DNA from: Yuukianura sp. NJ FZ-2021
Taxonomy: Eukaryota
Length of the DNA stretch: 64,000 nucleotides
Assembly: GCA_046563655.1 (NCBI GenBank)
Contig: CM102289.1
Coordinates: 2,108,001-2,172,000 of the forward strand
Reading direction: 5' to 3'
Made by a program: the position numbers and the translations under genes. A model generated the notes under the pieces. It saw only the letters and a program-made list of their open reading frames with translations, searched no databases and had not been told where the DNA came from. This document shows positions 18,588 through 21,500 of this stretch, in pieces (the stretch's first letter is position 1; each line of letters starts with the position of its first letter).

Positions 18588-21500
18588 TTAGTGCGGATTT
18601 TGGTGAGCATTGCGACGGCATGTGAGTTCTGCATCTGTGTTTCCGGTGATTGTTATTCGTGCTTTGGCTTTCATTGCCTCTGACAATGTCATCTACAAAA
18701 AAATTAGTTGAAGTGATTTTAATTAGACTTTCTAATTAATTTTAATTTTCAAAAATCATCGAATTTACCTGATTCGTCTTCGTGTCCTTCTTTGAGTTGT
18801 AGCAAAACTCAATGAAAGCCACTGCCATGGCCAAAACGAGTCCAATAATCAAAATGTAGAAAATTCCAGCCAAACTGCCCAATGAGAGTTCATCATCCGT
18901 AGAAGAAGTTTCCTGTTCAAAGTGCCAAAATAATCGGCGCATTAGACAGTTTTACAAATTCTGCTCATAATTTGATTACTTTGCTGCTGTGGTCACATTC
19001 ACTGCGTTCGTACCACCAAGTGTGCTGCATCTTACTCAGCATTCCATTTTCAGTCATTTGCAGCACAGCAACATTCAACGGATGCCTGTGAAAAGTAGAA
19101 TCAGAGTTTGCGAATTTTCAAATCTCAAATTTTGTTTCTAAAATTTTCAAAATTTTAATTTTTTTAAGTCGAGGCTTGAGTTAATTACTTGAGTGGAGAT
19201 CCTAATGGGGTCGCAATTCCGAATCCCTTCGCATCCAGATTCTGTCCAACTTTCATCGTGTCACAGGGTTTGCGTTGATTCGTGTAATCATTCTTCGGAG
19301 ATTCAACCAAGAGAGCATATTTTCCTGTAATATTGAATAACATTCAAATTTTGATTAATTTGTTGCAAATAGTTTAATTGACTAATTAATTAATTAATTA
19401 ACTAATTCATTTACTATGTGCTTTGTTTACCTTTGCGTTCACGAACCAGTTTGATTCCATCTTCGTAAGAGGGCACATTGACCCCTGGTGTTGTACTCAT
19501 GAACTCCCACATCCGCTTGTACTCTTCGATTTCCGATCGCTGAAATCATTTTAAACATAATTAATTACATAAAATATATAAATTAATTAATAATATATTA
19601 TATTATTCGCTACTTACACGAAAGAATTCCCAAGTGGATCCTCCTTTGTACGTTCCGTATTGGACTGCAGTTTGTTTTGACAAATCCATAGCATCCTTAA
19701 TGGGCAAAATCATGCGATTTACTGTTCTTACAGCAGCAAAATTGGCAGTATACGATGAAATTAAAATCAAAGTAAAAAACCACCAAACACTTCCAACGAC
19801 TCGTCCGGCAAACGATCTACAAAAAAAAAATGAACAATTTTAAAAATTCATAAAAGGTCAAAGGTTAAAAACGACAGCGGCGTGCATATGGTCGAGGTTT
19901 CTGAACAATTTGTTTTGAAAAACTTTGAAATTTCGAAAGCAAATGTTTCAAATTTGTTCAAAACAGGTGACGTACCTCGGGCAAATGTCACTCCCTTGTT
20001 GCACAAGAGCAGCAAATGAGAACCAAAGTGCATTCGGAATGCTAAACTGTGTTTGAAATCTTCCGCGAGTTTCCAGAATCCATTCAGCAGCGTTGAACCG
20101 TGTTACGACATACAGAATCAGAGATACGCCTATGTAAGCAATGATGACGCAGGACCACGTTTCGTTAGACAGAGGCGACAAAAATCCAAATACACCTTGC
20201 GTATGTTTCTTTGGCCTGACAAAAAAATCCGCCTTTTCAAAATTTTGAAAACGAAAATTTCAAAAAAAAAAGAAGTTTGTGCGTAGACTCACTTGTAGAT
20301 CATGATACTAATTCCTAGCGACAGAAACGGCTTGGTAAAGTCCACAACCCGTTCTCGCTCTGACGTAATCGTGAGTGCAGAAATTGTTAGATCAGCCTCC
20401 TTTAGATAAAAAAAAAACTCAAAGTGTAAAAATGTAAAAATGTAAACATGCAAAAACGTAAAAATGTAAAAGTGTACAAATGTAAAAATGTAAAATAGTC
20501 GAAACGTAATCAGACAGCATCAAGTACATTGTGCTGAGTGCACTGACCCTGCGCACTGCGTTTTGTTCAGAAACCTCTTGCCACGCACACCAATGTCCAT
20601 CAATTAAAGAAGTGTGGGGATGTAGTGGGCGGGATTTAGTTTACCGTGGATTGATGACAGTGCCTTGTCGAAAGATGCTGGCAATGGAGAACCAGAGAGT
20701 ATTTCTGAGTGTGTAGAGTTGGGCATTGCATGGATTTCTGGAAGTGAGGAGGAGGGTGACAGCTACAGAGAAAATGGCAGCAGCCGATGCCAACCACACG
20801 GAAGGTTGCATTGGTTTCACAAACGAAAAAGCTCCAGGGACTTCGCCTTGTGGAGTTTTAATCATGATAGAAATTCCGAGTTCAAAAAACGGTTTCGTAA
20901 ATTCTAGGACATCAAATTGACGGGATTTGAGCGAAATATGCATTTTTGGATCTTGAATTTATATTTTGTACGACTAACGTACCGATGACGGATTCCCGGG
21001 AGGCTGTAATTGTGAGTGGAGCAACGGCCATGTCTGCTTCCTAACCCCAAGTCACAAAGATTGGTACGTATCGGCATAAAATTGTGATGGATCGGCAGAG
21101 CATAGTGATTGGTCCACATAGAATAGTGATGGATCGGCAGAGAATCGTGATGGATCGACCGAAAAACGTGATGGATCGGCGGAGATCGGCATAAGTGTGA
21201 GAAAGAGGCAATAGAATAGAGGGCAGTATACAAAGTGATAGACGTTTGCAAAAGAGCAATTGCAAGGGTGAGGGTGAAATCTAAGACGGTGGCGGCGTGG
21301 AAAGAGGTTTTTTAGTTCTGCTCAAAAGAAACGACGCAGGCGCTGAGGTAGTTTAGCAGCACACATAAGGAAATTTTAGTGGATCGGGGAAGCGTGTAAA
21401 CACTTTTTCAAAGTTCAAACTTTTCTTACCTTTCGAATGAGCTCACCCACCATACCGTCCCAACCTGACCAAAAAAAAAAGTTTTGTTTCAAAAGAAGAT

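Follow-up and report, generated by a model that had tools for sequence, protein, structure and literature searches.

The Q/R site in the pore loop of GluA2, an AMPA-type subunit of the vertebrate ionotropic glutamate receptors (iGluRs), is the textbook example of recoding by RNA editing, which is carried out by ADAR2 and is essential in mammals. The present analysis concerns an AMPA-type gene on the minus strand of a 64,000-nt stretch of DNA from Yuukianura sp. NJ FZ-2021 (GenBank assembly GCA_046563655.1, contig CM102289.1, positions 2,108,001 to 2,172,000; the whole stretch is called the window here, and positions are counted from its first letter), in which glutamine and arginine at this same site are both written in the genome, in two neighbouring exon cassettes. 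The explanation we favour, with a probability of roughly three in four, is that the end of the S1 ligand-binding segment and the membrane segments M1 and M2 are encoded twice, in anciently duplicated tandem cassettes subject to mutually exclusive splicing, and that the choice between a glutamine and an arginine pore sets Ca2+ permeability. In AMPA and kainate receptors, both Ca2+ permeability and block by polyamines are reported to be controlled by the Q/R site together with the acidic residue at position +4 (PMC6307864).

A pore arginine written in DNA is found in other receptors as well. A hard-coded arginine occurs at Q2 in the acoel receptor Hof-98014323 and at Q1 in some fishes and early-branching vertebrates, and it is described as giving linear, Ca2+-insensitive currents (PMC13520880). 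These arginine paralogues are distinct genes, whereas the springtail versions are alternative exons of a gene whose amino-terminal domain, S2, M3, M4 and C-terminal tail are common to both. The vertebrate flip/flop exons are, like the springtail cassettes, a tandem-duplicated and mutually exclusive pair in an AMPA receptor gene (PMC13520880), but flip/flop is a short segment at the back of the ligand-binding domain that tunes desensitization, whereas the springtail cassettes hold M1 and the pore loop. Mutually exclusive exons that alter pore residues and the preference for Na+ or Ca2+ have been reported in invertebrate NALCN and in LCav3 (exon 12a/12b) (PMC3557258, PMC9694082), although NALCN and Cav3 are four-domain channels unrelated to iGluRs. 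The closest described counterpart for the RNA elements presented below is human ATE1, where R1 and R4 are reported to compete for R3 between two exclusive exons (10.1101/2020.06.04.134791), and the arthropod docking-selector systems of Dscam1, srp and 14-3-3 likewise use an inter-exon element that pairs with alternative intronic partners. The springtail system differs from ATE1 and Dscam1 in its gene and its sequences, and its splicing function is predicted from conservation and energetics.

Two pore cassettes in one receptor gene

Between two shared exons the gene carries two cassettes of two exons each, given here with the two codons of the Q/R site in transcript order:

21430..21464, minus strand: shared upstream exon (S1 segment), ending in phase 0, with the same 12 residues in the related loci L001 and L002
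20983..21040, minus strand: cassette A exon 1, 58 nt, closing S1 and containing the TIT..R motif with its conserved ligand-binding arginine
20645..20903, minus strand: cassette A exon 2, 259 nt, running from pre-M1 through M1 and a short M1-M2 loop into the M2 pore loop, leaving in phase 2
20668..20670, minus strand: CGA, arginine at the Q/R (Q1) site of cassette A
20293..20399, minus strand: cassette B exon 1, 107 nt, the end of S1 and pre-M1, with 86% identity to Allacma fusca P0003
19976..20215, minus strand: cassette B exon 2, 240 nt, running from M1 through the M1-M2 loop into the M2 pore loop, leaving in phase 2, with 90% identity to P0002
19999..20001, minus strand: CAA, glutamine at the Q/R (Q1) site of cassette B, with aspartate at +4
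19618..19816, minus strand: shared downstream exon, (R)SFAGR...SYTANFAAV, the end of M2 and M3

All four cassette exons are flanked by an AG acceptor and a GT donor and contain zero stops. Cassette A totals 317 nt and cassette B 347 nt, both 2 modulo 3, and exactly one cassette is required to keep the frame: in the computed reading, A alone or B alone remains open into the shared downstream exon, A followed by B runs into a stop four codons into B, and the omission of both leads to a stop at codon 51. The locus therefore holds adjacent homologous exons with equal entry and exit phases, and only single inclusion preserves the frame.

The initial annotation, made from the letters of the window, had read two stop-free two-exon cassettes between shared exons, entering in phase 0 and leaving in phase 2 such that either fits alone and both together shift the frame; the minus-strand reading, the exon measurements and the frame test bear out each of these points, and the CGA at 20668-20670 and the CAA at 19999-20001 lie exactly where they had been placed. 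Its gap-free alignment of the pore loops to GluA2 holds as well, with the Q/R codons falling on the arginine position of the rat GluA2 record P0266. The description of the locus as a Q/R switch stands insofar as arginine and glutamine occupy the GluA2 site, but it is too narrow, as the difference between the cassettes far exceeds that residue: only 44 of 104 aligned residues are common to A and B, and 60 differ. Each cassette encodes its own TIT..R agonist-binding motif, pre-M1, M1 and M1-M2 loop (the loop of A being 10 residues shorter than that of B), and beyond the Q/R site the isoforms would also be set apart by ligand-binding residues of S1, by pre-M1, M1 and the M1-M2 loop, and by the acidic site at +4.

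The identity of the gene is well delimited by its relatives. Searched by tblastn with P0003, a glutamate receptor of 901 residues from Allacma fusca, the window shows a multi-exon AMPA-type iGluR gene at about 18642-23854 on the minus strand, and springtail proteins are the closest named matches, with 73% identity to Allacma fusca over B exon 2 and 59% to Folsomia candida over A exon 2. Exon 1 of cassette B matches PF10613 (E = 1.9e-12) and exon 2 of cassette B matches PF00060 (E = 2.8e-13, 50.3 bits); A exon 2 matches PF00060 as a fragment at E = 7.5e-5 and only 23 bits, under the 30.8-bit gathering cut-off. The full-length relatives P0003 and P0156 carry PF01094, PF10613, PF00497 and PF00060. 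The combination of an S1 ligand-binding segment (PF10613) with a channel domain (PF00060) places the gene among the iGluRs, and the best 60 of 360 PDB sequence matches to the ortholog P0003 all fall on GluA1-4 chains, at 654-706 bits. By this comparison, in which the scores displayed are those of GluA chains, the gene is of the AMPA type (GluA) and not of the kainate type. The NCBI name for the Folsomia ortholog is 'glutamate receptor 1'. By these matches the window gene is an AMPA-type subunit of a springtail-like hexapod, and comparison with GluA2 is therefore direct.

A separate observation on this gene concerns M3. The gating motif reads SYTANFAAV in every springtail sequence seen (the shared exon at 19618-19816 of the window, L001-L003, P0003 and P0156), unlike the SYTANLAAFL (usual SYTANLAAF) of AMPA-like proteins from tick, scorpion, mite, shrimp and locust, and judging from this motif the gating of springtail receptors may be unusual.

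Like vertebrate GluA2, the window gene is of the AMPA type and offers glutamine or arginine at the same gap-free pore position from one gene. Unlike in GluA2, CAA and CGA are both genomic and lie in separate cassettes, such that the residue would be set by exon choice and not by deamination, and in the springtail arginine form about 100 further residues are exchanged and the +4 acid is lost. Editing of the GluA2 type places the glutamine codon inside an exon-intron duplex; no such duplex was found over the CAA at 19999-20001, as 0/9 inverted-repeat pairs in 19800-21450 cover it, and arginine is encoded as CGA in a cassette of its own. On this comparison, the window gene would do by splicing what GluA2 does by editing.

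Conservation of the cassettes and their use in gene models

A scan of metagenome contigs yielded 11 loci, of which the closest three (L001, L002 and L003) have 76, 61 and 60% identity to A exon 2, respectively, and 79-95% identity to A exon 1. All three keep the order cassette A, cassette B, downstream exon together with the R and Q residues, the upstream exon is also present on the L001 and L002 contigs, and AG/GT dinucleotides stand at all homologous boundaries. Because the same two cassettes recur in order in 3/3 close loci, the arrangement is not a chance pattern. Introns within the cassettes have come and gone with the frame kept: the intron between A exons 1 and 2 is present in the window and L001 and absent in L002 and L003, and the intron in cassette B is present in the window, at another position in L002, and absent in L001 and L003.

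The arginine of cassette A recurs in its relatives. A HMMER search with A exon 2 over 1.84 billion protein representatives returned 541 proteins at E <= 0.001, and the top six matches (58-78% identity) are A-type fragments that end at the ...PR donor, all of them with arginine. It is invariant in 8/8 aligned A-type cassettes, and its codon varies, L002 having CGC where the window, L001 and L003 have CGA. At +4 the A cassettes of the four loci have V, I, S or P, and the B cassettes keep both Q and D. Pairwise Nei-Gojobori counts among four loci (window, L001-L003; six comparisons) indicate that synonymous sites are saturated (pS, the proportion of synonymous differences, is 0.68-0.98), and in cassette A the nonsynonymous proportion pN of 0.13-0.27 compares with a pS of 0.68-0.82. 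The resulting pN/pS of 0.17-0.36 is close to that of cassette B (0.12-0.30) and of the shared exon (0.15-0.23). In a maximum-likelihood tree of 27 cassette sequences, the A-type and B-type sequences form separate clades with 100/100 support each, and the window, L001-L003 and Folsomia are present within both; as each clade holds all these lineages, the duplication is older than their divergence. Folsomia and Allacma belong to deeply separated springtail orders. By these sequence measures, purifying selection acts on both cassettes across relatives that diverged long ago; both copies are intact, able to be spliced and kept as coding sequence.

An A-type profile built from eight cassettes and searched among longer proteins led to Folsomia candida XP_035709778.1 (isoform X2, P0156). 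Clustered with P0156 are XP_035709777.1 (X1), XP_035709779.1 (X3) and an earlier model, OXA51859.1. When aligned, X1 and X2 are identical apart from the cassette and join the same flanking exons, X1 reading ...AALFQQGSDISPR (Q, QQGSD) and X2 reading ...IASIFRQSTPASPR (R, FRQS); OXA51859.1 uses cassette A and continues into the intron. The Folsomia cassettes are orthologous to those of the window, with X2 being 59% identical to A exon 2 over its full length. The two isoforms predicted from the window alone, one with Q and one with R, are thus matched exactly by XP_035709777.1 and XP_035709778.1, and the proposal that relatives keep both cassettes under constraint fares equally well, as A and B are conserved in L001-L003 with a pN/pS of 0.17-0.36 for A. 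Decay of cassette A in relatives, which had been named as an outcome that would undo the idea, is not seen (arginine in 8/8, intact splice sites in 4/4 loci). Candidates for spliced transcripts among the database proteins were rejected, since P0001, P0005-P0009 and the Logan members P0274 and P0275 are unspliced genomic fragments.

These data bear directly on the possibility that cassette A is an unused relic of the duplication, or is included as noise, with the Q form as the only product. Such a view could appeal to the divergence of cassette A, the more changed of the two copies (a long tree branch and the 23-bit PF00060 score), and to Allacma fusca, whose records P0003 and P0276 contain the B form only. 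An unused relic, however, would hardly remain open with intact splice sites in 4/4 loci and be present in further fragments, keep a pN/pS of 0.17-0.36 at saturated pS, or gain or lose its A1/A2 intron (window and L001 versus L002 and L003) with the frame kept. The Folsomia RefSeq isoform and the original GenBank model both use cassette A, and conserved selectors, described next, flank it. We regard the relic view as extremely improbable.

Competing pairings in the cassette introns

The introns around the cassettes contain three complementary elements, all within 1.5 kb:

21289..21311, minus strand: upstream selector U, in the intron before cassette A, complementary to M
20563..20594, minus strand: docking element M, in the A-B intron, able to pair with U or with D, these pairings overlapping at 20570-20593
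19876..19908, minus strand: downstream selector D, in the intron after cassette B, complementary to M

The M-D pair contains a 15-nt perfect inverted repeat (20563-20577 with 19894-19908, 15/15 complementary), and the U-M pair a 16-nt inverted repeat (20571-20586 with 21295-21310, 15/16 complementary). With their flanks, the window duplexes reach -32.1 kcal/mol for U-M and -28.7 kcal/mol for M-D, and 0/300 shuffles reach either value. In the minimum-free-energy fold of 1687 nt, 27/32 bases of M pair with 19876-19908 in an extended 27-bp duplex. Since U uses M positions 20570-20593, which overlap the M-D pairing, U-M and M-D cannot coexist.

The same arrangement of U, M and D occurs in L001, where the arms measure 20 nt and 23 nt, and in L002, where they measure 18 nt and 32 nt, while L003 has M-D only (16 nt), so that both competing pairings are present in 3/4 springtail loci (window, L001, L002). 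In these three the U-M and M-D complementarities are equalled by 0/150 random window segments, and the M-D pairing of L003 by 1/150. The control pair U-D is ordinary, with 13, 93, 121 and 120 of 150 random segments reaching it in the four loci. Duplex energies range from -28.7 to -48.0 kcal/mol, matched by 0/300 shuffles in 6/7 duplexes and by 1/300 in L003. All four loci have exactly one copy of the M core, AGAGGTTT, which invariably lies in the A-B intron, and the complements of the core are retained in all four as well, the introns being otherwise unalignable. In L002, one C-G pair of the M-D helix is replaced by U-A, a double change, and this locus has a complementary extension of its own; species-specific complementary extensions are found in the intronic helices. 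Overlapping and exclusive pairings, each placed to favour one exon, are the arrangement of docking-selector systems, here with L003 limited to M-D. Judging by conservation and energetics, the U/M/D set appears to be a signature of structure-controlled mutually exclusive splicing.

U also resembles D, both consisting of the complement of the M core followed by CACGCCGC. This likeness fits the duplication model for selector pairs of Ivanov and Pervouchine (PMC6071210), in which copying an exon along with the adjoining intron arm predicts that U and D should be similar. The same likeness could be taken to mean that the complementarities are passive leftovers of that duplication, in which case exclusivity would stem from the frame rule and nonsense-mediated decay and the choice of cassette from protein factors. 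Passive leftovers are difficult to reconcile with an M core and complements that persist in 4/4 loci despite saturated pS and unalignable introns, with the compensatory change and the lineage-specific complementary extensions, or with the -47 kcal/mol U-M duplex that unrelated sequences form in L010, a second lineage with R and Q cassettes. We consider this account very unlikely, although somewhat less so than a relic origin of cassette A.

Under mutually exclusive splicing gated by these elements, the U-M pairing would loop out cassette A and bring the upstream donor near cassette B, giving the Q isoform; the M-D pairing would loop out cassette B and bring the cassette A donor near the downstream exon, giving the R isoform; and transcripts with both cassettes or with none would carry early stops and be removed. 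The testable parts of the mutual-exclusion proposal, namely the frame rule, the Folsomia X1/X2 models and the conserved competing intron pairings, all agree with it.

Other features of these introns deserve mention in their own right. A local hairpin at 19911-19965 (20-nt arms, 90% complementary, 15-nt loop) adjoins D in the intron after cassette B and might modulate access to D. The A-B intron contains about 12 tandem copies of an 8-nt unit at 20404-20523 (AAAAATGT on the plus strand, ACAUUUUU in the transcript), an array that sits between the docking element and the cassette B acceptor and was not seen in L001-L003. Five tandem copies of a 21-nt unit with GTGATGGATCGG (plus strand) lie at 21054-21179, in the intron that precedes cassette A, and a sixth, related copy lies at 21371-21387. 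A Rbfox-type GCAUG motif was rejected as a regulator, as the single copy in the A-B intron of the window is not conserved in L001-L003. Elsewhere in the window, two near-identical translated stretches (...SSWPHPWFSFQL...) occur on the minus strand at about 54468 and 57824, some 3.4 kb apart; they probably represent a repeat or a duplicated part of a gene.

Probable channel properties, other arthropods and significance

The B isoform, with glutamine and the +4 aspartate, would form Ca2+-permeable, polyamine-blocked and inwardly rectifying channels, whereas the A isoform, with arginine, no +4 acid and a loop 10 residues shorter, would be of low conductance, Ca2+-impermeable and linear, alone or in heteromers, and heteromers would be the most likely setting for A subunits. 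We infer a Ca2+-permeable B and a Ca2+-impermeable A because the Q/R site and the +4 position exert this control in other AMPA receptors and because of results with engineered arginine. In brachiopod and acoel AMPA receptors, an arginine engineered at this site is reported to have abolished rectification and Ca2+ sensitivity, while in a hemichordate receptor it relieved them less completely, somewhat less than in rat (PMC13520880).

The splice switch could nevertheless be real and the selected difference lie elsewhere than in Ca2+, namely in gating, agonist response, assembly or trafficking, or the R form could be a near-silent modulatory or dominant-negative subunit. The S1 agonist-binding residues, pre-M1, M1 and the loop are swapped along with the pore, the M1-M2 loop of cassette A is shortened and its PF00060 score weak, and homomeric rat GluA2 with arginine is reported to give no detectable current without a transmembrane AMPA receptor regulatory protein (TARP) (PMC13520880). 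Set against these points, arginine is the one invariant and A-diagnostic pore residue (8/8), it is accompanied by loss of the +4 acid in the four A cassettes checked while B keeps Q and D, and the effect of arginine on rectification and Ca2+ sensitivity is reported to have held in three distant invertebrate AMPA receptors (PMC13520880). We judge a selected difference other than Ca2+ unlikely, but it is by some way the most credible of the alternatives.

Several observations weigh against a switch of Ca2+ permeability by exon choice as we read it. With 60/104 aligned positions differing, the selected property may be other than Ca2+ permeability; cassette A is the more divergent copy, and the Allacma records hold only the B form, as described above. 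The Folsomia X1/X2 isoforms are automatic gene models, of a pipeline (NCBI) that makes alternative isoforms where transcript alignments support them. No U partner was detected in L003 within the 605 nt of upstream intron on its contig, and the RNA-structure comparison spans only four loci, in two of which (L002 and L003) MAFFT misaligned the intronic elements.

Among the eight loci that are more remote (L004-L011), two cassettes on one contig are seen in L010 only. At L010:1468-2757 an upstream exon ending in phase 0 is followed by an arginine cassette and then a glutamine cassette, both running from phase 0 to phase 2:

L010 1723-2081: arginine cassette, Arg encoded as AGG, pore ...GSLLRAG
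L010 2305-2729: glutamine cassette, pore ...GAFMQQGSD, with Asp at +4

An inverted repeat of 45 nt (73% complementary) joins the upstream intron (1545-1589) to the middle intron (2207-2251) with a duplex energy of -47 kcal/mol, and neither arm is related in sequence to the springtail elements. Only 28 nt of contig follow the second cassette. The fragments P0078 and P0125 carry the arginine-type pore of L010. In the 27-sequence tree, the L010 cassettes fall in an unresolved polytomy outside the springtail A clade, and the R/Q cassette design may have arisen a second time in the arthropod-like lineage of L010. No pore-cassette difference was found in the isoform sets of Brevipalpus (two proteins), Palaemon (three), Schistocerca (four), Centruroides (four) and Ornithodoros (four), the Palaemon isoforms differing only by a six-residue indel in the M1-M2 loop. 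As a side observation, a hard-coded arginine at the Q/R site is seen among L004, L005, L006, L008, L009, P0116 (Schistocerca) and P0170 (Brevipalpus), in the contexts ...LLRQGCD, ...FMRRGCD, ...LMRQGCD and ...VVRQSCD, and the shrimp protein P0210 (Palaemon) has histidine there (...FMHQG). These AMPA-like genes with Arg or His all keep the +4 acid, unlike the springtail A cassette.

Our search of the full-text literature, in which subscription journals are mostly uncovered, found no paper in which alternative exons switch the Q/R site of any iGluR, and none that discusses the Folsomia X1/X2 isoforms. Alternative splicing of invertebrate AMPA receptors is stated to be still a subject for study in one report, which also describes acoels as reaching the same end through a hard-coded arginine in a duplicated gene (PMC13520880). 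The components are already known, as exclusive pore exons occur in other channels, hard-coded arginine paralogues and docking-selector structures have been described, and the isoforms stand unremarked in RefSeq; what is new in this analysis is the competing U/M/D pairing across the introns of the A and B cassettes. A broader claim is that springtails set the Ca2+ permeability of AMPA receptors cell by cell through an RNA-structure-gated Gln/Arg splice switch, a third independent route after editing and gene duplication, which predates the split of the sampled springtail lineages and may have arisen again in L010. This claim is tentative, and we give it slightly less than an even chance.

These observations are relevant to research on both glutamate receptors and splicing. 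The compact U/M/D set would be a convenient minigene model for structure-controlled mutually exclusive splicing, and Folsomia candida, whose X1 and X2 sequences are already available, is kept as a laboratory species. If the broader claim is true, selection would have repeatedly favoured a choice between Ca2+-permeable and Ca2+-impermeable AMPA receptors, a choice met at three levels of gene expression.

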